NCBI GenBank assembly: GCA_964596415.1
Contig: CAZQSX010000001.1
Location: 37,508-101,507, forward strand
DNA length: 64,000 nucleotides
Reading direction: 5' to 3'
Origin: an uncultured Gammaproteobacteria bacterium
Lineage (GTDB): Bacteria; Patescibacteriota; Microgenomatia; Levybacterales; GWA1-39-11
In this document: positions 13-46,003 of the stretch, piece by piece
Layout of the letters: each line of letters begins with the position of its first letter
Numbering within the stretch: the first letter of the stretch is position 1
Notes under the pieces: model-generated
The model's database searches: none
The model's input: the letters and a program-made list of their open reading frames with translations, nothing else
Told to the model about the DNA's origin: nothing
Position numbers and translations under genes: made by a program

Positions 13-98
13 GGCGGAGAGTACAGGATTCGAACCTGTGAGGGATTGCTCCCACTAGTTTTCAAGACTAGCGCCATAAACCGCTCGGCCAACTCTCC
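13..98 (-). tRNA. tRNA-Ser (anticodon UGA), class II with long variable arm
   Basis: Reverse complement reads GGAGAGTTGGCCGAGCGGTTTATGGCGCTAGTCTTGAAAACTAGTGGGAGCAATCCCTCACAGGTTCGAATCCTGTACTCTCCGCC. It has a 7-bp acceptor stem, a 3-bp D stem, anticodon stem CTAGT/ACTAG with loop CTTGAAA (anticodon TGA), a long extra arm, and T-arm CAGG-TTCGAAT-CCTG. CCA is not fully encoded. Confidence 0.8.
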
Positions 99-215
99 AA
101 ACATTATGCCTCGCAGTTTGCCTTTTTGCAAAGATAAAACCGCTCGGCCAACTCTCCAAACATTATGCCTCGCAGTTTGCCTTCTTGCAAAGATAAAACC
201 GCTCGGCCAACTCAT
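76..215 (-). repeat. Tandem 59-bp direct repeat (2 full copies + ~15-bp partial), each carrying a sigma70-like promoter (TTGCAA-17nt-CATAAT) plus the first ~20 nt of tRNA-Ser(UGA)
   Basis: Units at 81-139 and 140-198 differ by one base; a partial third copy lies at 199-213 (ccgctcggccaactc). Unit 1 is the native promoter and 5' end of the tRNA at 13-98. Confidence 0.9.
103..131 (-). promoter_or_regulatory. Promoter of tRNA-Ser(UGA): -35 TTGCAA, 17-nt spacer, -10 CATAAT, 4 nt before the tRNA 5' end
   Basis: Read on the minus strand: TTGCAAaaaggcaaactgcgaggCATAATgttt-GGAGAG. A duplicate copy lies at 162-190. Confidence 0.6.
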
Positions 216-225
216 TATAGTTTTC

Positions 226-318
226 TGCGGAGGGTACAGGATTTGAACCTGCGCGAGCTTGTTTAAGAGCTCAGGGGATTAGCAATCCCCCGCAATGGAC
301 CAACTATGCGAACCCTCC
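226..318 (-). tRNA. tRNA-Ser (anticodon GCU), class II
   Basis: Reverse complement reads GGAGGGTTCGCATAGTTGGTCCATTGCGGGGGATTGCTAATCCCCTGAGCTCTTAAACAAGCTCGCGCAGGTTCAAATCCTGTACCCTCCGCA. Anticodon stem is GGGGA/TCCCC with loop TTGCTAA (anticodon GCT). It has a long variable arm and T-loop TTCAAAT. Confidence 0.8.
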
Positions 319-508
319 TCACTTTTTATATTAGTTCGCACAAGCTTTGCTTATGCGAACCCTCCAGACTATAGCCATTCATTATAGCAGAGCAGGCACG
401 CAAATTGAAGCAGGTGGCAAGTCACAAATGACTAAATGTTTCTTTTAGAAAAATATGTACGAATGCATGCGTAGGTTGTATTAGTGGGATTTTTATATAT
501 AATACGCT

Positions 509-1438: not shown

Positions 1439-2188
1439 CTAAGCTTTATTTGAGATTACAATTATTTGAGACTCACCAGTGATGGAGGTGAGCGTATTAT
1501 CTATTCTAGTAACAATACCTACAAAAAAGTATTTGATATATCTAATAGTTTTTCCTGCGAATGGATTAAGGAATAAAAAATTTCTTAGCATGCTTTCTTT
1601 TTTATAAATCTTTTTTATTTTAAATCCACTTTTTCTTAATTTATTCTGCAGTTCCTCAGCAGTATAGCGCCTCAAATGTCCAACTTCTATATCAAACTTT
1701 TTTGCATAGCCCAATTTGTATAATGGCGCATTTTTTGACGGAGTGGAAAGAAAAAGTATTCCACCTGGTTTTAATAGTTTATAAATCTTTTGAAGCGCTA
1801 ATTCATCGTCTGGGAGATGTTCGATAACTTCACTAAAAAATATTAAGTCATATTTTCCCGACGGAATTTTATTTGGAAAATCACAAACTTCAAAGTTTGC
1901 ATTTTTTAGTCCAATGATTTCTACAGATTTTTTAGAAGCATCAATTGCTTTTTTTGAAATATCTATTCCTTTAACTTTGTATCCTTTAGATGCAAGGTAG
2001 AGAGATATGGTTCCGCTTCCACAACCTATGTCTAGAATGGATTTTATATTTTTTGAAAGACAAGAGTTTAATATGGGAATGATATTTATATAAGTGAAAT
2101 TATTTGCACTAATTACTTTTTTTTGAGCAGATGATTTACTATGGTATTTTTCGTATAAACTATTTAACAACATTTTATTTATTGACAT
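1439..2188 (-). CDS. class I SAM-dependent methyltransferase
   Basis: Motif I LDIGCGSGTISLYLA, an acidic residue ending beta-2 (KGIDIS), and post-motif II KPGGILFLSTP. Confidence 0.8.
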   Translation of the reverse strand: MSINKMLLNSLYEKYHSKSSAQKKVISANNFTYINIIPILNSCLSKNIKSILDIGCGSGTISLYLASKGYKVKGIDISKKAIDASKKSVEIIGLKNANFEVCDFPNKIPSGKYDLIFFSEVIEHLPDDELALQKIYKLLKPGGILFLSTPSKNAPLYKLGYAKKFDIEVGHLRRYTAEELQNKLRKSGFKIKKIYKKESMLRNFLFLNPFAGKTIRYIKYFFVGIVTRIDNTLTSITGESQIIVISNKA

Positions 2189-5345: not shown

Positions 5346-5813
5346 ATGAAGCTTACATTTCTTTTTAAAATTTTACCAGCACAATATGCACATGCTCATT
5401 GTGATATTCCATGCGGAATTTATGATCCAAACCAAGCGCAGCTTGCAGCTCATACCGTCTATCGTATGGTGCAGTTATTGGAGGAGCACCAGGAAAATGT
5501 TCATGATGTTGCTCGCATAACACATGTGAAAGAAGAACACGGAGAATTAGTTGAAGATGCACTCGGAACACTTGAAAATGATTATTTTAAGAAAGAAAAT
5601 TTTGAGAAATTTCCTGAGCTTAGGGATTTAATTTCTGATGCGGTACAGCTTTCAATAAAAACACGTCAAAAAGTTGATCTGCAACTTGCTGGAGAATTAG
5701 TTGAAAAAGTAATGCTTATTTCAGAAATCTTTTATAAGTCAAAAGGGGTTACTCCTGTTCGCATGAAATCTGTCTACCCTACAGAATTAGAATTTGTTAC
5801 TTATGCCGCATGA
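5346..5813 (+). CDS. sodN: nickel superoxide dismutase precursor (Ni-SOD)
   Basis: Leader MKLTFLFKILPAQYAHA is followed by the Ni-hook HCDIPCGIYDP, the diagnostic Ni-SOD N-terminus His-Cys-x-x-Pro-Cys-Gly-x-Tyr. Length is about 155 aa with a four-helix-bundle-like remainder. A promoter-like TTGACA-17-TAGTAT lies at 5321-5349. Confidence 0.85.
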   Translation: MKLTFLFKILPAQYAHAHCDIPCGIYDPNQAQLAAHTVYRMVQLLEEHQENVHDVARITHVKEEHGELVEDALGTLENDYFKKENFEKFPELRDLISDAVQLSIKTRQKVDLQLAGELVEKVMLISEIFYKSKGVTPVRMKSVYPTELEFVTYAA

Positions 5814-6073
5814 TTGTTAGACGTTTTAAAATTACTGGTCACAGTATGCAACCTACTTTTAGCCCTGGAGATCAAGTAATATCTTGGAAATTCTCAAAGA
5901 TAAAAAAAGGTGACGTTGTGGTTGTTCAATATCTTTCAAAACATATAATAAAGCGTGTTATACAAATATCAAAAGATTTCATTATTTTAACAGGAGATAA
6001 TAAAAAAGATAGTTTAAAAATTCCCCCAATCCCAAAACGTGATATTATTGGAAAGGTGATTCTAAAAATATAA
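5810..6073 (+). CDS. sodX: S26/S24-family signal-peptidase-like maturation protease for Ni-SOD (SodX)
   Basis: GHSMQPTF motif (Ser of the Ser/Lys dyad) and IKRVIQ (Lys). ATGA start/stop overlap with sodN. A Ni-SOD gene adjacent to an S26 peptidase gene is the classical arrangement. Confidence 0.75.
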   Translation: MIVRRFKITGHSMQPTFSPGDQVISWKFSKIKKGDVVVVQYLSKHIIKRVIQISKDFIILTGDNKKDSLKIPPIPKRDIIGKVILKI

Positions 6074-38922: not shown

Positions 38923-40014
38923 ATGTCAAGTGAGGTTCCATTTTATGACCCGGGTCAAAGTTATGAAGACAATTATGAAAATGGTCCTTTTGGTTCTTTT
39001 TCTGATGGTCGAAAAATTGAAGATCCTCTTCGTCCACCACAGCATGAGTTTATGGGACACAAGGTAAATCTTCCTTTTGGAATTCCTGCAGGTCCACTTC
39101 TCAATAGTAATTATATTAAGGCAGCTTTTGAAAAAGGGTTTGATGTTGCGGTATATAAAACAGTACGAGCTGGGGAGTTTCCATGTCATCCTTTTCCAAA
39201 TGTTTTAGGGGTACATCTAGATGGTGATTTAACTATGCAGCGAGCGAACGAACCAATTTTTGCAGATACAAATTATACAAACCCAATATCTATTACAAAT
39301 TCTTTTGGCGTTCCGTCTAAAGATCCCTCAGTTTGGCAGGAGGATGCAAGACGGGCTATGAGTTTTGCAGGTGAAGGGCAGGTAATGGTACTAAGTTTTA
39401 TGGGAACTGTAAAACCAAATCAAACAGCAGAAGAATTTGTTCAGGATTTTGTACGAACAGCAGAACTATCAAAAGAAACAGGCGCAAGAATTCTCGAAGG
39501 GAATTTATCTTGTCCCAATATCGGTAATGAAGGCTTGGTTTGTTATAACTTGGACATGACTGAAAGGGTTACGCATGCGACTCGAGATAAAGTTGGGGAC
39601 ATTCCACTTATTTGGAAAGTGGGTTATTTTGAGTCTGATGCTGATCTTAAAAGGCTTGCGAAAATTATGCATGATACACACTCTGGAATTTCAGTTATTA
39701 ATACGATTCCTGCAACGATTGTTGACATAAATGGAAATCAAGCGCTTCCTGGAAGCCCAGCCAGACTTAAAAGTGGTGTCTGTGGCTCTGTTATTAAATG
39801 GGCGGGAATGGATATGGTAAAAAGGCTTGATAGAATTAGAAAAGAAGATGGGTATGAATTTTCAATAGACGGAGTTGGTGGAGTAACAACTGTTCAAGAT
39901 TATTTTGATTATAAAGAGGCAGGGGCTGATGCGGTTTTCTCAGCAACGGGAGCAATGTGGCATCCGAATCTTGCGCTTGGAATAAAAAGAGAAGTTAAAA
40001 AAAGAGCAGCTTAA
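38923..40014 (+). CDS. pyrD: dihydroorotate dehydrogenase-like (class 1 DHOD/DHPD family) flavoenzyme; alternative start at 39052
   Basis: NLPFGIPAGPL...GFDVAVYKTV, catalytic-loop LSCPN, and a TIM-barrel FMN-binding pattern (GVGGV...DAVFSATGAMW). An N-terminal ~43-aa extension is present if the first Met is used. Adjacent to pyrE. Confidence 0.65.
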   Translation: MSSEVPFYDPGQSYEDNYENGPFGSFSDGRKIEDPLRPPQHEFMGHKVNLPFGIPAGPLLNSNYIKAAFEKGFDVAVYKTVRAGEFPCHPFPNVLGVHLDGDLTMQRANEPIFADTNYTNPISITNSFGVPSKDPSVWQEDARRAMSFAGEGQVMVLSFMGTVKPNQTAEEFVQDFVRTAELSKETGARILEGNLSCPNIGNEGLVCYNLDMTERVTHATRDKVGDIPLIWKVGYFESDADLKRLAKIMHDTHSGISVINTIPATIVDINGNQALPGSPARLKSGVCGSVIKWAGMDMVKRLDRIRKEDGYEFSIDGVGGVTTVQDYFDYKEAGADAVFSATGAMWHPNLALGIKREVKKRAA

Positions 40015-40634
40015 GACTTTTTACTTTCCAAAAACTTTTTTCCATGCCCCACAGTTGTGTTTATAGGGATCCCTTTTTTGCAAAGTGGACAGTTTCTTGC
40101 TTCCCATGTTTCCACGAATAATTCTCCCAAACTCATAAACGGGGCGCCTACTGTATCCCCATTTACTGTTTTTGGACTTCTATTTACCATGACAATTACT
40201 GAAACTACTCTTCCGCCGGCATTTTTTACTGTGGTTACAACTTTCTTAACAGATCCGCCGGTTGTAGTTAAGTCTTCAATTACCAGTACATTTTTATCCT
40301 TTACATACTTATCATACCCGCGGGTAAATACCTGGTTTTTATCTGCATCTTTTTCTGTGTAAATTCCCAGAATTTCTTTATTTTTTAAAGAAGAAAGGTG
40401 ATAGGCAGTCCACGTAGATAGAATAATTCCGCCAAGTGCTGGTGCTACTACTACATCTATGTCTAAATCTTTTGCGCGTTTTGCAAATAGCATTCCCACC
40501 CTTGATGTTTCCTCAGTGTGCGGATAGAGCGCATCTTTATTAATATAAATTGGCATGTGAAGACCAGAGGTTCCCACAAAATGGTCATCTACTAAAACTG
40601 CACCAACACTTTTTAAGATATCCAAAACTTCCAT
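40011..40634 (-). CDS. pyrE: orotate phosphoribosyltransferase
   Basis: PRPP-binding loop VLVIEDLTTTGGSVKKVV. Type I PRTase length. Confidence 0.8.
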   Translation of the reverse strand: MEVLDILKSVGAVLVDDHFVGTSGLHMPIYINKDALYPHTEETSRVGMLFAKRAKDLDIDVVVAPALGGIILSTWTAYHLSSLKNKEILGIYTEKDADKNQVFTRGYDKYVKDKNVLVIEDLTTTGGSVKKVVTTVKNAGGRVVSVIVMVNRSPKTVNGDTVGAPFMSLGELFVETWEARNCPLCKKGIPINTTVGHGKKFLESKKS

Positions 40635-40641
40635 ATAGATA

Positions 40642-41733
40642 TTATATAACTGGTTTTATAACTTGTCCAAATCCTTTTTCAGCTAAAATTTTTCCCTGCC
40701 TGCCGGTAGGCATGGTGTTTTCAAAAACGGTTGTTTCTCGAATAATTACCTTCTTAACCCTTCCCTTCATTCTTCTTCCTTCAAATGGTGACCAACCACA
40801 TTTAGTAAATAACATTTCATTGGTAAGTGCGTACTCTTCATCCGTGTCCACTTCAACAATCGCATCTTGGTCAGGTAGGTTAAAAATTTTCTTTGGATTG
40901 TCATGGCAAAGCCGAAATATATCTTCAATTTTAAGTCTACCCTCGCTCACTGCGGTTAATAGCAGAGGAAGGGTCGTTTCTAAACCTGGTACTCCAAATG
41001 GAGGAGTATCGCTTTCTTTTTCCTCTTTTGTATGCGGTGCATGGTCAGATTCTATGATATCAATTTGATCCAGATGATCCCATAAAAACTGAACATCTTT
41101 CTTTGATTTTAAATATGGTTTCATTTTCCCGTATGATCCTAATTTTTTACTATCTTCTTGAGTTAAAAATAAATGATGAGGCGTTACTCCGCAGGAAACA
41201 GGAAGTCCTTTTTCTTTTGCTTGCATGATTTGCTCTAGATCCGTTCTTAAACTAATATGACAAAAATGAGCGTGCTTTTTTGTTTTGGTTACGTTTTTTA
41301 TAACTTCAGAAACTGCGTCGTCTTCTGCATGAACGAGAATTGGTCTACCATTCCAAGCGTCATATATTTTTGCAAGAGTATTTGAGTCGATTAAAAAATT
41401 TCCAGTTGTTTCATTAAGATATAGTTTTAACCCAAATACTTTTTCTTTTACTTTTTCAAATTCAGAGAGGTTATCACCTAAAGATCCAAAATAAAAACCA
41501 ACATCACTTACTATGGATTTTTTTGCAAATTCTATTTTTTCAAGAAGAAGCTTTGCGGATGTGATGGGAAATGTATTATTTGGCATGTCTAAAATTTGCG
41601 TAAACCCACCAGCTATTGCTGCAGCAGTTCCTGTATAAAAATCTTCTTTATGGGTTTGACCAGGAGTTCTTAGGTGAGTATGGATGTCTATAAGTCCTGG
41701 CAGGGTAATGTTTTTCATCTGTATTCGCTCCAC
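40642..41733 (-). CDS. pyrC: dihydroorotase (amidohydrolase superfamily)
   Basis: PGLIDIHTHLRTPG (HxH metal ligands), later His/Asp ligands (HAEDD, DHAPH). Confidence 0.8.
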   Translation of the reverse strand: MERIQMKNITLPGLIDIHTHLRTPGQTHKEDFYTGTAAAIAGGFTQILDMPNNTFPITSAKLLLEKIEFAKKSIVSDVGFYFGSLGDNLSEFEKVKEKVFGLKLYLNETTGNFLIDSNTLAKIYDAWNGRPILVHAEDDAVSEVIKNVTKTKKHAHFCHISLRTDLEQIMQAKEKGLPVSCGVTPHHLFLTQEDSKKLGSYGKMKPYLKSKKDVQFLWDHLDQIDIIESDHAPHTKEEKESDTPPFGVPGLETTLPLLLTAVSEGRLKIEDIFRLCHDNPKKIFNLPDQDAIVEVDTDEEYALTNEMLFTKCGWSPFEGRRMKGRVKKVIIRETTVFENTMPTGRQGKILAEKGFGQVIKPVI

Positions 41734-44700
41734 GATTTTATAGGAAGATCCTCGAGTGTGTACTCTGTTAATGCTTTTATATAAAGATTAGCATTTTTTC
41801 TGTTTGTTATAAGGCGAATATTATGATCAACTGCAGCTCTTCTCATAATATATCCATCATCAACATCTTTTTTATGTTTTAGATCAACAATATTAATAGC
41901 AAGATCTACTTTTCCGCGAGCAAAAAAATCTAAGATGTTAGGGTTTTTATTTTCATGAATTTTGTAAAGACGTTTAGCGGGAATTCCATGATATCTAAAA
42001 AACTTTGCTGTATTTTCAGTCGCATATATTTGAACTCCTAATTCCTTTAAGCGAAAAGCACTATCTAAGAATCTGACTTTATTATCCTCTGAGCCAAGGG
42101 ATACAAAAATTCCTTTTTTTGGAATAACTCCATCTACTGAGAGTTCAGCTTTTAGAAATGCCTCATCAACATGCTCTCCAAAAGCAGCTGCTTCTCCGGT
42201 TGAAGCCATTTCTACTCGAAGCAGAGGATCTGCTCCTTCTAGTCTTGAGAATGAGAATTGCGGAACCTTTACAAGGTAAGATTTTGGGTAAGGGATAATT
42301 TCTTTTTTACCTTTATTAAAAAACGCATCAACTAAAACGTGGGCAAGATTAACCCCTGTTGCTTTGGAGATAAATGGAAATGTTCGGGATGCCCGAAGAT
42401 TTGCTTCAATAACGTAGACTTTTCCTTCACGTGCTAAAAATTGTATATTTATGGGTCCAGTAATATCTAATTTTTTTACAATTTTTTGAGCAATTTCTAT
42501 AATTTCTCGTTCATAGTGAATGTAAAGATTATGAGGAGGGTAAACAATTGACGCATCACCAGAATGTACACCCGCATTTTCTATATGTTGGGATATAGCG
42601 TATCGGATTAATTCTCCGTGTTGACCAACTCCATCAAGCTCTATCTCCCGAGCATGCTCTATGAATTTACTTACCGTAATTGGATGATCGCTGCTGATAG
42701 TAGTAGCAACTTTTTTTAAGAAAGATTTTAAGTCTTCTTCTGTATAGCATACACTCATAGCATCACCAGAAAGTACATATGACGGTCGAATAAGCACAGG
42801 ATACCCTTCCTCTGTTGCAAATGTAATTGCGGACTGTACTGTTTTAAACTGCTTCCATATGGGTTGTGCAATATTGAGTGTGTCAAGAAGGTGGGAAAAT
42901 GTATTTCTGTCCTCTGCGCGGTCAATATTTTCAGCGCTTGTTCCAAGAATAGGAACTTTATTAAGATCTAATTTTTTTGCGAGATTATTTGGCGTTTGTC
43001 CTCCAACAGAAATAATTACACCAAAAGATTTTTCAAAATCATAAATATCCAAGACCCGTTCTAGTGTTAGTTCTTCAAAATAGAGTCTATCTGAGATGTC
43101 ATAATCTGTTGAAACAGTTTCAGGGTTACAGTTTATGATGATTGATTGTTTTTTGTATTTTTTTAGAGCAAGAGCTGTGTTAACACATGTCCAATCAAAC
43201 TCTACGGAAGACCCAATTCTGTAAGGACCTGATCCCAGCACAATGACACCGTCATTTTTAATAGGTGTAACATCATTTATTGTTGCATGATATGTCATGT
43301 ATAGATAATTTGTTTTTGCTGGAAATTCCCCAGCGAGAGTATCAATCTGAAGAACAGAAGGGATTATCTTAAACGCGAGTCGCATCTTTCGAATTTCTTG
43401 TTCAGGTATTTTTAAAATAGATCCAATTTTTTTATCTGAAAAACCGAGTTTCTTCAGGTGGTATAAAGAGTCTTTTGTTATAATTTTTTTGTTCTCTAAA
43501 ACTGTTTCAGCATGTGCGATATTTTTTATACCAGTTAGAAACCATGGGTCAATTCCTGTAAGTTTATGAATTTTTTGAATTGTTTCACCATTTTTAAAAG
43601 CTTGAGCAATTGCAAAAATTCTTTTTGGAGTAGGAGTTTTTATAAAATGATGTAGGTTTTCTTTTTTTGTTGCGAACCGGTCTTTATTCCTGAGAATATT
43701 ACTGTCAGTAATTCCTTCATTTCCTGTTCCAAGCATCCTGATTGCTTTTTGAAGTGCTTCTTCAAATGATCTTCCGATACTCATAACTTCTCCAACAGAT
43801 TTCATGCTGCTTCCTATTTTTTCCTCAACCCCTTTAAATTTTTCTAGATCCCAGCGGGGAATTTTAACAACTAAATAATCAAGTGCAGGTTCAAAACAGG
43901 ATTGGGTTACAAGCGTCACCTGATTTTTAATTTCAGTCATGGAAAATCCTAACGACAGTTTTGCCGCAACATATGCAAGTGGATATCCGGTTGCTTTAGA
44001 AGCAAGAGCAGAAGATCTTGAAAGTCTTGGATTCATTTCAATTACCTGATACTCTAATGGCGGATTATTTAAGTGGGCTTGCCCTGAGCCTTCTGGCGAA
44101 GGGTGAAGTGCAAATTGGACATTGCATTCGCCAACAATATTTAAACTTCTCACAATCTTAATGGATACATCTCTGAGGTATTGATATTCATAATTGGTAA
44201 GCGTTTGAGAAGGCGCAACCACAATAGATTCTCCTGTATGAATTCCCAGGGGATCTAAATTTTCCATATTGCAAACTGTTATGCAGTTATCATATGCGTC
44301 TCGTACTACTTCGTACTCAATCTCTTTATAATGATGAAGATATTTTTCTATGAGAATTTGTGGTGAAAAAGAAAGGGCTTCTTCTATTTTGAGATTAAAT
44401 TCTTCCTCTGTGTAGCAGATTCCAGACTTCTGTCCTCCTAGAGCAAATGCAGCCCGTACCATAACAGGAAGGCCTAATTTTTTCATAACTTTTTTTGCCT
44501 CAGAGATACTTGCAGCTGCATAACTAAGAGGAGTATTTACTTGGATTTTTTTCATGTGTTTTGCAAATTCAGCTCTATCTTCTGCGATAATGATGCTTTC
44601 AACGGATGTTCCAAGAACTTTTGTTTGATATTTTTGAAGAACCCCTTTTTTATATAAGTTAACACCGCAGTTCAATGCAGTTTGTCCGCCAAAAGAAAGT

Positions 44701-44966
44701 GTTATGGCATCTGGTTTTTCTTTTTTTATTACTTCTTCTACAAAATGTTCAGTTACGGGAAGAAAATAAACGGTATCTGCTAAAAATTCAGAAGTTTGAA
44801 TGGTTGCAATGTTAGGATTTATAAGAACTGTTGTTATTCCTTCTTCTTTATATGCTTTAATTGCTTGTGAACCTGAGTAATCAAATTCACCAGCTTGTCC
44901 GATTTTTAATGCACCAGATCCAAGTATCAAAATTTTTTTAATTTTCTGTATTTTTTTATTTGTCAT
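41715..44966 (-). CDS. carB: carbamoyl-phosphate synthase large subunit
   Basis: 1083 aa, duplicated ATP-grasp halves (ILILGSGALKIGQAGEFDYSG ... IVLGSGPYRIGSSVEFDW), and a C-terminal MGS-like domain. Confidence 0.95.
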   Translation of the reverse strand: MTNKKIQKIKKILILGSGALKIGQAGEFDYSGSQAIKAYKEEGITTVLINPNIATIQTSEFLADTVYFLPVTEHFVEEVIKKEKPDAITLSFGGQTALNCGVNLYKKGVLQKYQTKVLGTSVESIIIAEDRAEFAKHMKKIQVNTPLSYAAASISEAKKVMKKLGLPVMVRAAFALGGQKSGICYTEEEFNLKIEEALSFSPQILIEKYLHHYKEIEYEVVRDAYDNCITVCNMENLDPLGIHTGESIVVAPSQTLTNYEYQYLRDVSIKIVRSLNIVGECNVQFALHPSPEGSGQAHLNNPPLEYQVIEMNPRLSRSSALASKATGYPLAYVAAKLSLGFSMTEIKNQVTLVTQSCFEPALDYLVVKIPRWDLEKFKGVEEKIGSSMKSVGEVMSIGRSFEEALQKAIRMLGTGNEGITDSNILRNKDRFATKKENLHHFIKTPTPKRIFAIAQAFKNGETIQKIHKLTGIDPWFLTGIKNIAHAETVLENKKIITKDSLYHLKKLGFSDKKIGSILKIPEQEIRKMRLAFKIIPSVLQIDTLAGEFPAKTNYLYMTYHATINDVTPIKNDGVIVLGSGPYRIGSSVEFDWTCVNTALALKKYKKQSIIINCNPETVSTDYDISDRLYFEELTLERVLDIYDFEKSFGVIISVGGQTPNNLAKKLDLNKVPILGTSAENIDRAEDRNTFSHLLDTLNIAQPIWKQFKTVQSAITFATEEGYPVLIRPSYVLSGDAMSVCYTEEDLKSFLKKVATTISSDHPITVSKFIEHAREIELDGVGQHGELIRYAISQHIENAGVHSGDASIVYPPHNLYIHYEREIIEIAQKIVKKLDITGPINIQFLAREGKVYVIEANLRASRTFPFISKATGVNLAHVLVDAFFNKGKKEIIPYPKSYLVKVPQFSFSRLEGADPLLRVEMASTGEAAAFGEHVDEAFLKAELSVDGVIPKKGIFVSLGSEDNKVRFLDSAFRLKELGVQIYATENTAKFFRYHGIPAKRLYKIHENKNPNILDFFARGKVDLAINIVDLKHKKDVDDGYIMRRAAVDHNIRLITNRKNANLYIKALTEYTLEDLPIKSWSEYR

Positions 44967-46003
44967 ACTTTTTTAAGAAATTCATCAAACAAAAAGTCAG
45001 TATCTTGTGGCCCTGGATAGCTCTCTGGATGAAACTGTACAGACATAAACGGCAATGAGTTGTGGATAATTCCTTCATTGGTGTTATCATTTGCATTCGT
45101 AAACCAAGTTTTGAACCCAGGAGGAATTTTCCCAACTGCGTATCCGTGGTTTTGCGTTGTGATATAGCATCTATCAGTTCCCGTCATCACGCAGGGTTGG
45201 TTTTGGGATCTATGTCCATACTTTAATTTATAGGTGTCTCCGCCAGCAGCAAGTGCAAGAATTTGATTTCCCAAACAAATACCAAAGGTAGGAATTTTTT
45301 TCTCAAGTGCTTTTTTTATAATCTCAATTGTTTTTACTGCCATTTTTGGATCACCTGGTCCATTTGAGATAATAATTCCATCACATAAAACGTTATGCTT
45401 AAAAATATCATAATCCCACGGGACAGTTATTACTTCAACGCCACGATTCAAAAGGCTTCTTACGATATTTCTTTTTGCACCGCAATCAAATAAAACAATT
45501 TTTTTCTTGCCAGTTCCTTGCCTAACTATTTTTTTTGTTGAAACTTCAGCAACTAAATTTTCAATATTTGGATTGTATTGTTCTAATCCGCCAGCTGGTG
45601 GATTTATCAATATTTTTCCAAGCATCGTTCCTTTTGTTCTTAATTTTTTTGTTAAGAATCTTGTGTCTGAAATTTCAAGACCAGGAATACCTTCTTCTTT
45701 CAACCAGCTCGCAAGCGTTTTACGACTGGTGTGATGAGAGGGGTTGTCAATATAATTACAAACAATAAGACCTTTTATATGAATAGAATCTGATTCAAAA
45801 TATTTGTTATCTGTTACGCCGTAGTTTCCAATTAATGGATAGGTAAATATGAGAATTTGTCCTCTGTATGAAGGGTCGGTAATTGATTCTGGATACCCAA
45901 CCATGCCAGTTGCAAAAACCACTTCCCCTGCGGTTGAAGTGGGCGCTCCAAATGAAGCACCTTCAAGATGTGTTCCATCTTCTAAAATTAAATAACCTTT
46001 CAT
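44963..46003 (-). CDS. carA: carbamoyl-phosphate synthase small (glutaminase) subunit
   Basis: Class I GATase catalytic GICLGNQ (Cys) and HPE near the C-terminus. ATGA overlap with carB. Confidence 0.9.
   Translation of the reverse strand: MKGYLILEDGTHLEGASFGAPTSTAGEVVFATGMVGYPESITDPSYRGQILIFTYPLIGNYGVTDNKYFESDSIHIKGLIVCNYIDNPSHHTSRKTLASWLKEEGIPGLEISDTRFLTKKLRTKGTMLGKILINPPAGGLEQYNPNIENLVAEVSTKKIVRQGTGKKKIVLFDCGAKRNIVRSLLNRGVEVITVPWDYDIFKHNVLCDGIIISNGPGDPKMAVKTIEIIKKALEKKIPTFGICLGNQILALAAGGDTYKLKYGHRSQNQPCVMTGTDRCYITTQNHGYAVGKIPPGFKTWFTNANDNTNEGIIHNSLPFMSVQFHPESYPGPQDTDFLFDEFLKKV

Follow-up and report, generated by a model that had tools for sequence, protein, structure and literature searches.

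Partial copies of tRNA 5' ends in the leader and spacer of a probable two-gene serine tRNA operon from a Levybacteria-like genome

Two serine tRNA genes near the left end of the 64,000-nucleotide stretch of DNA analyzed here (the window) are accompanied by repeated fragments of their own 5' ends (heads) and by promoter-like hexamers, which raises the question of whether the arrangement is a stack of promoters, a scar of recombination at a tRNA gene, or a by-product of local duplication. The host is a low-GC, Levybacteria-like (Patescibacteria/CPR) chromosome. A sequence-only reading of the window had considered both replication slippage and site-specific recombination; overall it is partly supported, in that its anatomy and a slippage-type origin of the extra repeat unit stand and the recombination scar does not.

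Both tRNA genes are intact, belong to class II, and lie on the minus strand. The tRNA-Ser(UGA) gene occupies positions 13 to 98 (ARAGORN; Rfam RF00005, 60.1 bits), encodes no CCA, and is 100% identical in sequence in five related loci (L004, L005, L006, L008, and L021). The tRNA-Ser(GCU) gene occupies positions 227 to 318 (ARAGORN; Rfam, 52.8 bits) and is 100% identical in L008 and L021. Transcription therefore runs from right to left, through tRNA-Ser(GCU) (318 to 227), a 128-nt spacer, and tRNA-Ser(UGA) (98 to 13), so that the extra UGA heads precede the real UGA gene. The pair has a conserved promoter at positions 381 to 409 of the minus strand, consisting of TTCAAT (409 to 404), 17 nt, and TATAAT (386 to 381). 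This block is 97% identical to that of L008 and L021, compared to 61% in the noncoding DNA upstream and 41 to 53% at four-fold sites of the neighboring genes. The same layout, TTCAAA-17-TATAAT, occurs upstream of the GCU gene in L017, and in L011 both serine tRNAs lie 1 nt apart behind a single promoter, indicating that cotranscription is normal in this clade. The GCU trailer (214 to 226, minus strand) consists of GAAAAC followed by TATAAT (219 to 214), with the same letters in the sister species. Read directly from the sequence, the trailer's ATAATG followed by AGTTGG equals the unit sequence ATAATGTTTGGAGAGTTGG minus 7 nt (TTTGGAG).

The spacer is largely made up of an array at positions 78 to 213, for which Tandem Repeats Finder gives a period of 59, 2.3 copies, 98% matches, and no indels. 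A repeat search divides it into two full units (78 to 136 and 137 to 195) with one mismatch between them and an 18-nt third copy (196 to 213); the array thus contains three 18-nt direct repeats at intervals of 59 and 59 nt. The minus-strand sequence of the unit is TATCTTTGCAA(A/G)AAGGCAAACTGCGAGGCATAATGTTT followed by GGAGAGTTGGCCGAGCGGTTT, that is, a 38-nt spacer containing TTGCAA-17-CATAAT and 4 further nucleotides, and then positions 1 to 21 of tRNA-Ser(UGA). In the direction of transcription, the array begins with an old partial UGA head, GAGTTGGCCGAGCGGTTT (196 to 213, minus strand), which is without the first GGA and is common to the sister species, with one mismatch there. It continues with the distal 38-nt spacer, or unit B (158 to 195, minus strand; -35-like hexamer at 190 to 185, -10-like hexamer at 167 to 162), and a full 21-nt copy of the head (137 to 157, minus strand), a decoy 5' acceptor strand with the 5' part of the D arm that is specific to the window lineage and absent from L008, L021, and L022. 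The proximal 38-nt spacer, or unit A (99 to 136, minus strand), carries TTGCAA at 131 to 126 and CATAAT at 108 to 103, the promoter-like part of this spacer stopping 4 nt short of tRNA position +1. Unit B differs from unit A by one substitution, G for A just after TTGCAA, and it is unit A that keeps the sister-species state. Unit A also contains an imperfect inverted repeat, TCTTT-GCAA-AAAGG-C-AAACTGC, which can pair with GCGGTTT of the preceding head copy. Two near-identical 59-bp units plus a partial third, each with promoter-like hexamers and a tRNA head oriented as the gene, are what the sequence-only reading had described, and our repeat analysis bears this out.

A separate duplication lies in the GCU leader, where GGAGGGTTCGCATA is present both at 365 to 352 and at the start of the gene (318 to 305), with 14 identical nucleotides, a differing 15th, and a spacing of 47 nt. 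The upstream copy (352 to 365, minus strand) begins 15 nt past the TATAAT box and is specific to the window lineage. It had been reported as a 15-nt copy at 347 to 361; the copy is real and its distance from the TATAAT box was correct, but those coordinates are 4 nt off and its length is 14 nt. The 33 nt between the two heads, AGCAAAGCTTGTGCGAACTAATATAAAAAGTGA (319 to 351, minus strand), are window specific and occur once in the window. Pairing of the 3' portion of the head copy with the beginning of this insert gives a 12-bp hairpin or quasi-palindrome, GTTCGCATAAGC-AAA-GCTTGTGCGAAC (334 to 360, minus strand), the insert start being an 11/12 inverted copy of the sequence immediately before it. 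The hairpin is near perfect (DNA fold, -11.1 kcal/mol; z = -6.59; 0 of 200 shuffles as good), and its stem recurs in the RNA fold. It is followed by UAAUAUAAAAAG, with no U-run, and the sole terminator-like call was a 7-pair stem with 3 G-C pairs, with G-T pairs allowed. Reading the head plus T-run as a terminator or attenuator was rejected, as the stem is weak and missing from the sister species.

To gauge chance, we used the longest exact match between the first 30 nt of a tRNA and the 250 nt upstream for 38 tRNA genes of the fetched loci. This match was 4 to 8 nt long except in the loci described here, next to a paralogous neighboring tRNA (L017), and upstream of a tRNA-Ile gene (L021; 10 nt). 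Neither head repeat is attributable to chance.

The sister species is represented by three syntenic contigs (L008, L021, and L022) from four samples or sequencing runs, and it has the gene order of the window: UGA, GCU, ORF1, methyltransferase, and Kelch/C39. Its array consists of the partial head and one unit (1.3 copies versus 2.3 in the window), and it has no GCU head copy. Alignment of the two (A1) contains exactly two clean window-specific insertions, one of 45 to 47 nt in the GCU leader and one of 59 to 60 nt in the spacer, the latter as a single gap in register with the repeat. The copy-number difference and the order of events are thus visible in the alignment: the partial UGA head is common to both species and so is ancestral, and by sequence comparison the extra 59-bp unit and the 47-bp GCU insertion are specific to the window lineage. 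This same-layout comparison rests on one sister species, and a strain contig (L019; 97% identical) ends 41 nt before ORF1. The sequence-only reading had named slippage as a possible origin and copy-number variation among relatives as a way to check it; such variation exists, and with one unit fewer in the sister species the extra unit looks like ordinary variation of the replication-slippage type, and not like a mobile-element scar or a proven promoter stack.

Beyond the sister species, the fetched loci served mainly as controls. A 44-nt tRNA pattern recovered 13 loci from genome and metagenome collections, which were used as controls for promoter spacing and gene order; all 13 have a single head and are too distant for tracing the old partial head. 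An exact search of JGI metagenomes for the 31-nt promoter plus head gave no match. In more distant contigs with Kelch homologues (L016, L017, and L018), the tRNAs are absent from the locus or in another arrangement without a head copy. A 7-mer (ACTGCGA) shared between the unit and the L014 promoter region was judged compatible with chance.

The reading that we prefer, and to which we give somewhat more credence than doubt, is that this is a two-gene minus-strand tRNA operon whose noncoding parts record three separate local duplications of tRNA 5' ends, as neutral or mildly harmful by-products rather than as a device. The old event, common to the sister species, would have placed a partial UGA head and one 36- to 38-nt spacer upstream of the real gene. 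Misalignment of the two 18-nt direct repeats, whose present distance is 59 bp (~57 bp in the sister with its single unit), may then have followed in the window lineage, through replication slippage or unequal sister-strand exchange, giving one more 59-bp unit with a complete 21-nt head. Also in the window lineage, the GCU leader would have gained 47 bp, made up of the 14-nt head copy and 33 new nucleotides that begin with an inverted copy of the head. The simplest cause would be a fold-back template switch during replication, and the hairpin suggests template switching as the origin. The 15 nt that follow the hairpin (TAATATAAAAAGTGA) are not copied from the old leader, so that a simple fold-back and return fails for the insert as a whole. 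Quasi-palindrome template switching is an established mutational route, and an inverted copy with a near-perfect hairpin such as that of the GCU insertion is the signature of strand-switch copying (PMC7202029, PMC6357072). In the classical events, a few bases are changed so that an imperfect palindrome already present becomes perfect, whereas here a new 33-nt insert and a 14- to 19-nt direct duplication stand beside the inverted copy, and the remainder of the insert falls outside this pattern. On this view, the tRNA pair would come mainly from a single precursor that starts at the conserved GCU promoter; RNase P and RNase Z would release the two tRNAs, and the head copies would be lost along with the leader and spacer. 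RNase P RNA, though diverged, is present in CPR genomes (PMC8172020). Some internal initiation at the unit hexamers may occur, although these are not established promoters. What we infer here is how the copies arose at the molecular level, how the pair is transcribed, and that the duplications serve no function.

If the repeats were instead adaptive, each 59-bp unit might be a working sigma70-type promoter, and its duplication would lift tRNA-Ser(UGA) output independently of GCU, with the proximal start at or next to the mature 5' end. We consider this doubtful, and the stacked-promoter reading is unproven. Both units carry TTGCAA-17-CATAAT, with 9 of 12 consensus positions, which the sequence-only reading had called a complete sigma70-like promoter; the hexamers and their 17-nt spacing stand, but conservation in the sister species and a suitable placement do not. 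Matches of this quality are common in the AT-rich DNA of this locus: a promoter scan gave 9 consensus sites in 1.5 kb compared to 3.8 ± 2.2 in shuffles, and four of the nine are the two repeated unit sites, each counted in two registers. The promoter-likeness of the units, taken alone, is within chance. The window's CATAAT is nearer consensus than the sister -10, which would fit a promoter that was improved and then duplicated, and a -35-like TTTACA (5/6) is retained in the sister species; its counterparts of CATAAT, however, are the degenerate ATAAAT or TAAATG, which lack either A at the second position or T at the sixth. The unit -10 leaves 4 nt to tRNA +1, compared to 10 to 17 nt at the clade's other tRNA promoters, and transcription starting 6 to 8 nt past CATAAT would begin inside the tRNA, at positions +2 to +4, and yield a truncated tRNA, although a short distance from -10 to start is apparently used elsewhere in this genome (at ORF1, 5 nt separate TATAAT from the ATG). 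An RNA initiated at the upstream unit would start with the decoy head, which is predicted to capture the 3' acceptor strand (decoy-paired fold, -52.1 kcal/mol; native fold, -48.3 kcal/mol). Between the two species, aligned positions of the spacer itself show 92% identity, though neutral sites are near saturation, and this could reflect selection on the spacer, including the partial head and hairpin, or recent exchange, given that the methyltransferase close by is 87% identical at four-fold sites. Such conservation is in keeping with a promoter stack and also with a functional RNA or DNA element in the leader and spacer, comprising the conserved partial head with its hairpin and the GCU leader hairpin, that acts in precursor processing or isoacceptor balance, for example as a decoy titrating folding or RNase P, a proposal that we find quite improbable. 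In its favor, the 92% compares to 41 to 61% for neutral DNA, the spacer hairpin is kept in the sister species (z = -3.1 in L021), changes preserve pairing (T to C giving C-G in L021 and A to G giving U-G in unit B), the GCU hairpin is strong, and the decoy is energetically competitive. Against this, the unit hairpins of the window are no better than shuffles (z = -1.3 and -0.6), the GCU hairpin is missing in the sister species and is not an intrinsic terminator, and gene conversion from the real head or recent exchange would equally preserve the similarity. No Rfam family covers the element: with Rfam 15 on the leader and spacer, only the two tRNAs reached threshold and subthreshold matches overlapped them, and a permissive search of positions 1 to 520 and of the L021 tRNA-Ile region returned only tRNAs.

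Exchange with other DNA offers a further set of explanations. Incoming DNA carrying a related tRNA gene with its own upstream region could have replaced the promoter or leader by homology-facilitated illegitimate recombination, through the tRNA body on one side and with an illegitimate joint inside the resident head on the other, leaving the resident promoter, a resident head fragment, a foreign upstream sequence with a -10 box, and the tRNA. This model, which we regard as improbable, would cover the old UGA event as well as the GCU insertion but not the extra 59-bp unit. In its favor, a -10-like box closes each insert just ahead of the new head (TAATAT, with 9 nt to the head, and CATAAT, with 4 nt), and the order of promoter, ~10 to 15 nt, head fragment, 33 to 75 nt, and real tRNA recurs at the L021 tRNA-Ile and possibly at the L004/L012 GCU genes. 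The locus is also mosaic, with the nearby methyltransferase 87% identical at four-fold sites versus 41 to 53% for its neighbors, and the position of the tRNA cassette varies among close relatives. However, no donor was found: a search of the window and of 23 related loci gave no further copy of the 33-nt or the 38-nt insert, both are unlike the upstream regions of the same tRNAs in L004 to L006, L011, L014, and L017, and the fold-back hairpin of the GCU insertion is not predicted by the model. Site-specific integration or excision of a mobile element, the origin that the sequence-only reading had offered beside slippage, would be suggested by the choice of tRNA genes, which are common integration targets, by the two orphan genes that follow (ORF1 and ORF2, 509 to 1372), and by the differing places of the cassette in relatives. 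Integrase scars at tRNA genes duplicate the 3' part of the gene, flank kilobases of DNA that include the integrase, and have a fixed crossover point. The att-site repeats that result are likewise directly oriented tRNA-gene fragments near an intact gene, but all of those other features are missing in the window array. Here the duplicated parts are 5' ends, their end points differ (tRNA position 14 for GCU and 21 for UGA), merely 33 to 38 nt lie between copies, and no further copy of any part of positions 1 to 420 exists within the 64 kb. Of the ORFs in the first ~14 kb, 10 proteins were tested and none has an integrase domain, and the Pfam hits for genes in the 6 kb flanking the opposite side in L021 include none either. 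Neither ORF1 nor ORF2 matches a Pfam or PHROG family (the L021 neighbor likewise has no PHROG match), ORF1 is conserved beside the methyltransferase and Kelch genes whether or not a relative has the tRNAs at the locus, and the two junction patterns have no match in 2.9 million viral contigs. We therefore consider an integration scar extremely improbable. An assembly artefact, in which the assembler passed one time too many through a graph loop or joined two strain variants end to end, is very unlikely. The source is evidently a metagenome-assembled contig, and the one-position difference between units could be a strain single-nucleotide polymorphism; nevertheless, four independent runs gave identical assemblies of the 1.3-copy precursor, the extra unit keeps exact register, and the copies are nonidentical, unlike those of a simple loop. 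As the GCU insertion is unique sequence, it cannot be a repeat artefact.

Local duplication, our preferred reading, leaves the question of how widespread such events are. Five tRNA-end duplications are found among ~20 nonredundant tRNA genes: the partial and the full UGA heads, the GCU head, a head-like fragment upstream of the tRNA-Ile(UAU) of L021, and a 26-nt copy of a 3' end after the GCU gene of L006. It is conceivable, though we think it improbable, that duplication of tRNA-gene ends is a systematic process in Levybacteria-like CPR genomes and not a set of three accidents, driven by replication-transcription conflict or by recombination with imported DNA, and that the conserved spacer with its partial head and hairpin was co-opted for precursor processing or internal initiation. 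By GC skew, the tRNAs are head-on to replication in the window, L008, L021, and L017 and codirectional in L005 and L006. Head-on conflict as the cause was set aside and is kept as speculation, as L017 is head-on without a duplication and short loci give noisy skew. As a separate observation, several of the five duplications adjoin a fold-back hairpin, and their loci change position and orientation between close relatives.

The closest known parallel is the partial-gene arrays of plastids, such as the trnF(GAA) pseudogene repeats of Brassicaceae and Solanaceae and the trnY-derived repeats of the fern Vandenboschia and Douglas-fir (PMC3786074, PMC3098776). In these arrays, as in the window, short units (27 to 73 bp) made from spacer and part of the adjacent tRNA gene follow one another head to tail immediately upstream of the intact gene, related taxa differ in copy number, and copies of sigma70-type -35/-10 motifs lie in or next to the repeats, with the function of the extra motifs disputed (PMC3786074, PMC3098776). 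The likeness is a resemblance of pattern, as the type of genome and the copied part of the tRNA differ. The plastid arrays belong to organelle genomes, can be long (as many as 17 units of 27 bp in the fern array derived from trnY), and mostly hold anticodon-, D-, and T-domain pieces, usually without the acceptor stem, whereas the window array belongs to a free bacterial chromosome, has 1 to 2 extra copies, and holds the 5' acceptor strand and the 5' part of the D arm. Among bacteria, the tyrT operon of Escherichia coli has 178-bp tandem repeats downstream of the tRNA, each with the last 19 nt of tRNA-Tyr, a small ORF, and a terminator, and these repeats are thought to arise and vary by unequal recombination. 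As at the window locus, a tRNA operon in a bacterium carries tandem repeats that contain one end of the neighboring tRNA gene; the tyrT repeats, however, are downstream, longer, and derived from the 3' end, whereas those of the window are upstream, derived from the 5' end, and equipped with promoter-like hexamers.

On its own merits, this locus is a small structural polymorphism in a tRNA operon. Its value lies in a clean dated series, one copy and then two, in which repeats seeded by a partial duplication let promoter-proximal DNA expand. It also cautions that consensus "stacked promoters" and tRNA fragments near orphan genes need not mean regulation or mobile elements. If duplications of tRNA ends proved to be unusually frequent in CPR genomes, they would represent a lineage-specific source of instability at highly transcribed genes and could confuse both tRNA annotation and att-site prediction.

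Two serine tRNA genes lie on the minus strand of the window, tRNA-Ser(UGA) at positions 98 to 13 and tRNA-Ser(GCU) at 318 to 227 (both by ARAGORN; Rfam scores of 60.1 and 52.8 bits, respectively), so that transcription proceeds leftward and reaches tRNA-Ser(GCU) first. Tandem Repeats Finder reports an array at 78-213 with a period of 59, 2.3 copies, 98% matches, and 0 indels, and a repeat search recovers two full units, proximal (78-136) and distal (137-195), with 1 mismatch between them. A third, partial copy of 18 nt follows (196-213), without the first three bases (GGA). Both searches thus confirm the near-identical 59-bp units and partial third copy described in a sequence-only reading, but the copies that it called downstream are actually upstream of the real tRNA-Ser(UGA) gene, since both tRNAs are on the minus strand. 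On the coding strand, the unit reads TATCTTTGCAA(A/G)AAGGCAAACTGCGAGGCATAATGTTT, then GGAGAGTTGGCCGAGCGGTTT, which equals positions 1 to 21 of tRNA-Ser(UGA), the 5' acceptor strand and 5' part of the D arm. The tRNA-Ser(GCU) gene also has a copy of its head (its first bases): the 14-nt GGAGGGTTCGCATA, 47 nt upstream of the identical gene start. This copy was correctly recognized as real and as starting 15 nt past a TATAAT box (386 to 381), although its true site is 365 to 352 rather than 347-361. We looked for exact matches between the first 30 nt of each of 38 tRNA genes in the loci compared and the 250 nt upstream of it. The longest per gene was 4 to 8 nt; the exceptions were the UGA/GCU repeat loci, a paralogous neighboring tRNA in locus L017, and a 10-nt match before tRNA-Ile in locus L021. 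Chance is ruled out for both the 59-bp array and the GCU head copy.

We recovered 13 loci sharing one 44-nt tRNA-Ser(UGA) stretch from genome and metagenome collections, and the head is single in 13 of 13. At loci that include upstream sequence and have no tRNA immediately before tRNA-Ser(UGA), the gene shows its own promoter-like -35/-10 pair, clearest in L004 to L006 and L014, and the -10 box lies 10 to 14 nt from the tRNA. The tRNA-Ser(GCU) gene is usually nearby: it precedes tRNA-Ser(UGA) by 0.8 to 2.4 kb in L004 to L006 and L012 and by 1 nt in L011. Three contigs of one sister species (L008, L021, and L022), derived from four sequencing runs, were reached via the Kelch/C39 protein (69% identity) and the orphan gene ORF1 (58%). 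Their order and orientation are those of the window (UGA, GCU, ORF1, methyltransferase, Kelch/C39), and neither tRNA differs from its counterpart in the window (100% identity). Exactly two clean differences separate the aligned loci. First, the sister species carries a partial head and one unit, 59/60 nt less than the window, so the copy number of the unit does vary among relatives. Second, it has no copy of the GCU head, and the window is 45 to 47 nt longer at that point. This distribution indicates that the partial head and one spacer are older than the split of the two species and that the window lineage later gained a further full unit and the GCU insertion.

The old event would have left two 18-nt direct repeats about 57 to 59 bp apart, whose misalignment, by replication slippage or unequal sister-strand exchange, would gain or lose whole units. 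The extra unit of the window is in exact register and carries one substitution relative to its twin, at which the proximal unit retains the sister-species base. With the sister species one unit short, slippage, as the sequence-only reading proposed, or unequal exchange between the 18-nt repeats appears well supported as the origin of the extra unit. The old partial head (ATAATG+AGTTGG) matches the unit sequence minus 7 nt (TTTGGAG), from which we infer that an older unit probably decayed to this form, losing its upstream half once tRNA-Ser(GCU) came alongside. The GCU insertion adds 33 new bases that have no other copy in the window and open with an 11/12 inverted copy of the bases just before. 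The resulting 12-bp hairpin, GTTCGCATAAGC-AAA-GCTTGTGCGAAC, has a predicted energy of -11.1 kcal/mol as DNA (z = -6.59; 0 of 200 shuffles as good). Inverted copies of this kind are the hallmark of copying that resumes on another strand when a replication fork stalls (PMC7202029, PMC6357072). The GCU insertion thus probably stems from strand-switch copying during replication, although this leaves the final 15 nt of the insert unaccounted for. Within the UGA unit, GCGGTTT of the head pairs with AAACTGC of the spacer around an inner 5-bp stem; this hairpin does not outperform shuffled sequence in the window (z = -1.3 and -0.6) and does so only moderately in L021 (z = -3.1). The evidence does not support a scar of site-specific recombination, which had also been proposed. 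The repeats copy 5' ends and stop at different points, and the copies are only 33 to 38 nt apart. No further copy of any part of positions 1-420 was found in the window (best other matches, 14 nt; E = 0.08). Ten proteins from ORFs within the first ~14 kb were tested and had no integrase domain, and none appeared among the precomputed Pfam matches of genes across 6 kb of the opposite flank in L021. Neither ORF1 nor its orphan neighbor ORF2 has a Pfam or PHROG match, and the junction sequences were not found in a viral contig collection. ORF1 steadily adjoins the methyltransferase and Kelch genes, whether the tRNAs are present or not.

The sole clearly conserved promoter, TTCAAT-17-TATAAT (409 to 381, minus strand), is 97% identical to the sister species, compared with 61% in the noncoding DNA just upstream and 41 to 53% at four-fold sites of neighboring genes, and TTCAAA-17-TATAAT occurs in the same layout in the more distant L017. 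Because the two genes are 1 nt apart in L011, a dicistronic GCU-UGA precursor appears to be the normal state in the clade. RNase P RNA is present in CPR genomes, though diverged (PMC8172020). As neither gene encodes CCA by direct reading, tRNA 3' ends would come from RNase Z-type cleavage and CCA addition. In this dicistronic model, the head copies would be discarded along with leader and spacer. The unit's own TTGCAA-17-CATAAT matches the consensus at 9/12 positions, and shuffled sequence gives 3.8 ± 2.2 such matches per 1.5 kb. Its -10 box ends 4 nt short of the mature 5' end; transcription usually starts 6 to 8 nt downstream of the -10, and such a start would therefore truncate the tRNA. 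The sister species has ATAAAT/TAAATG at the -10 position. In addition, the full upstream head is predicted to capture the 3' acceptor strand (-52.1 kcal/mol for the decoy versus -48.3 for the true 5' end, in a model that leaves out tertiary structure and cotranscriptional folding), and no such decoy pairing is predicted for the sister's partial head. For these reasons, the duplication is, in our view, neutral or slightly costly; the stacked promoters envisaged from the sequence remain unproven. Against a neutral or costly duplication, the -10 is better in the window than in the sister species, and the spacer shows 92% identity between the two species despite near-saturated neutral sites. Selection on the spacer could explain this identity, and so could recent exchange. 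The adjoining methyltransferase (window 1439-2188, minus; L008 3118-3879) is 92% identical in protein and 87% at four-fold sites, and its flanks are far more diverged (Kelch/C39, 70% and 53%; ORF1, 58% and 41%). This contrast marks the locus as a mosaic and suggests recent recombination between lineages.

The closest ORF1 apart from that of a 97%-identical strain (L019) is in L020 (71%), where ORF1 and ORF2 are present and the tRNA pair is missing. There, a YgaP-like gene abuts the ORF1 promoter, and similarity between L020 2516-2616 and window 366-508 ends just past the ORF1 -10 region. In L004 to L006, the tRNAs are oppositely oriented relative to an Mrr-like gene. Together, these arrangements indicate that the tRNA pair was repeatedly moved and inverted in the clade. 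In ORF1 (498-937, plus), a TATAAT ends 5 nt ahead of the ATG, so its mRNA is probably leaderless; the family comprises only three clusters among 5.8 billion proteins. ORF2 (974-1372, plus) is found in L020 and L019 and missing from L008 and L021. The window has a G+C content of 36% and encodes nickel superoxide dismutase, FemAB, UvrD, LytR, a DUF2298 membrane protein, and the Kelch/C39 peptidase, which has named homologues in Candidatus Levybacteria and other Patescibacteria. A nickel superoxide dismutase gene followed by its S24/S26-type maturation peptidase (5346-6073, plus) in this Patescibacteria-like genome is kept in all syntenic relatives (L009, L016, L017, L018, and L021). By GC skew, the tRNAs are transcribed opposite to the replication direction; those of L017 are too, yet without duplication. 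The sole stretch of the window with negative skew on the plus strand, 40001-46000, may be a local inversion or an opposite-strand gene block.

The closest described pattern is in plastids, where tandem partial trnF or trnY copies lie just upstream of the intact gene; their copy number varies with the taxon, and the function of the duplicated sigma70-like -35/-10 motifs is disputed (PMC3786074, PMC3098776). The present case differs in lying on a CPR bacterial chromosome, in copying exactly the 5' acceptor strand and 5' part of the D arm, and in offering a dated one-to-two copy series. A bacterial parallel is Escherichia coli tyrT, whose 178-bp repeats each contain 19 nt of the tRNA 3' end.

Similar layouts occur elsewhere in the clade. 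L021 has a tRNA-head-like fragment, GGAGCCGTAGCTCAGCGGTAAGC (2345-2367), 10 nt past a promoter-like TTGGTT-17-TTAAAT and about 75 nt upstream of tRNA-Ile(UAU) (2441-2513), whose head it matches at about 19/24 positions; the intervening sequence has no Rfam family match. In L006, a 26-nt direct repeat (1138-1163 and 1244-1269) comprises the last 17 nt of tRNA-Ser(GCU) and 9 nt of trailer, with an inverted repeat (CGTCAAAC/GTTTGACG) directly after the first copy; it could be either the 3'-end equivalent of a duplicated head or a scar resembling an att site. In L004 and L012, 8 nt of the GCU head recur 12 nt past a TATAAT, a length within chance. Unmodified A34 serine tRNAs are unusual in bacteria, and ARAGORN predicts a class II tRNA-Ser with anticodon ACU (A at position 34; anticodon loop TTACTAA) in three Levybacteria-like relatives (L004 4901-4986, L012 3910-3995, and L017 371-454), 24 to 27 nt past another tRNA-Ser gene; the window has no such gene. 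The hints from the partial tRNA copies in the relatives allow, and do not establish, that this lineage may have a general tendency to duplicate the ends of its tRNA genes.
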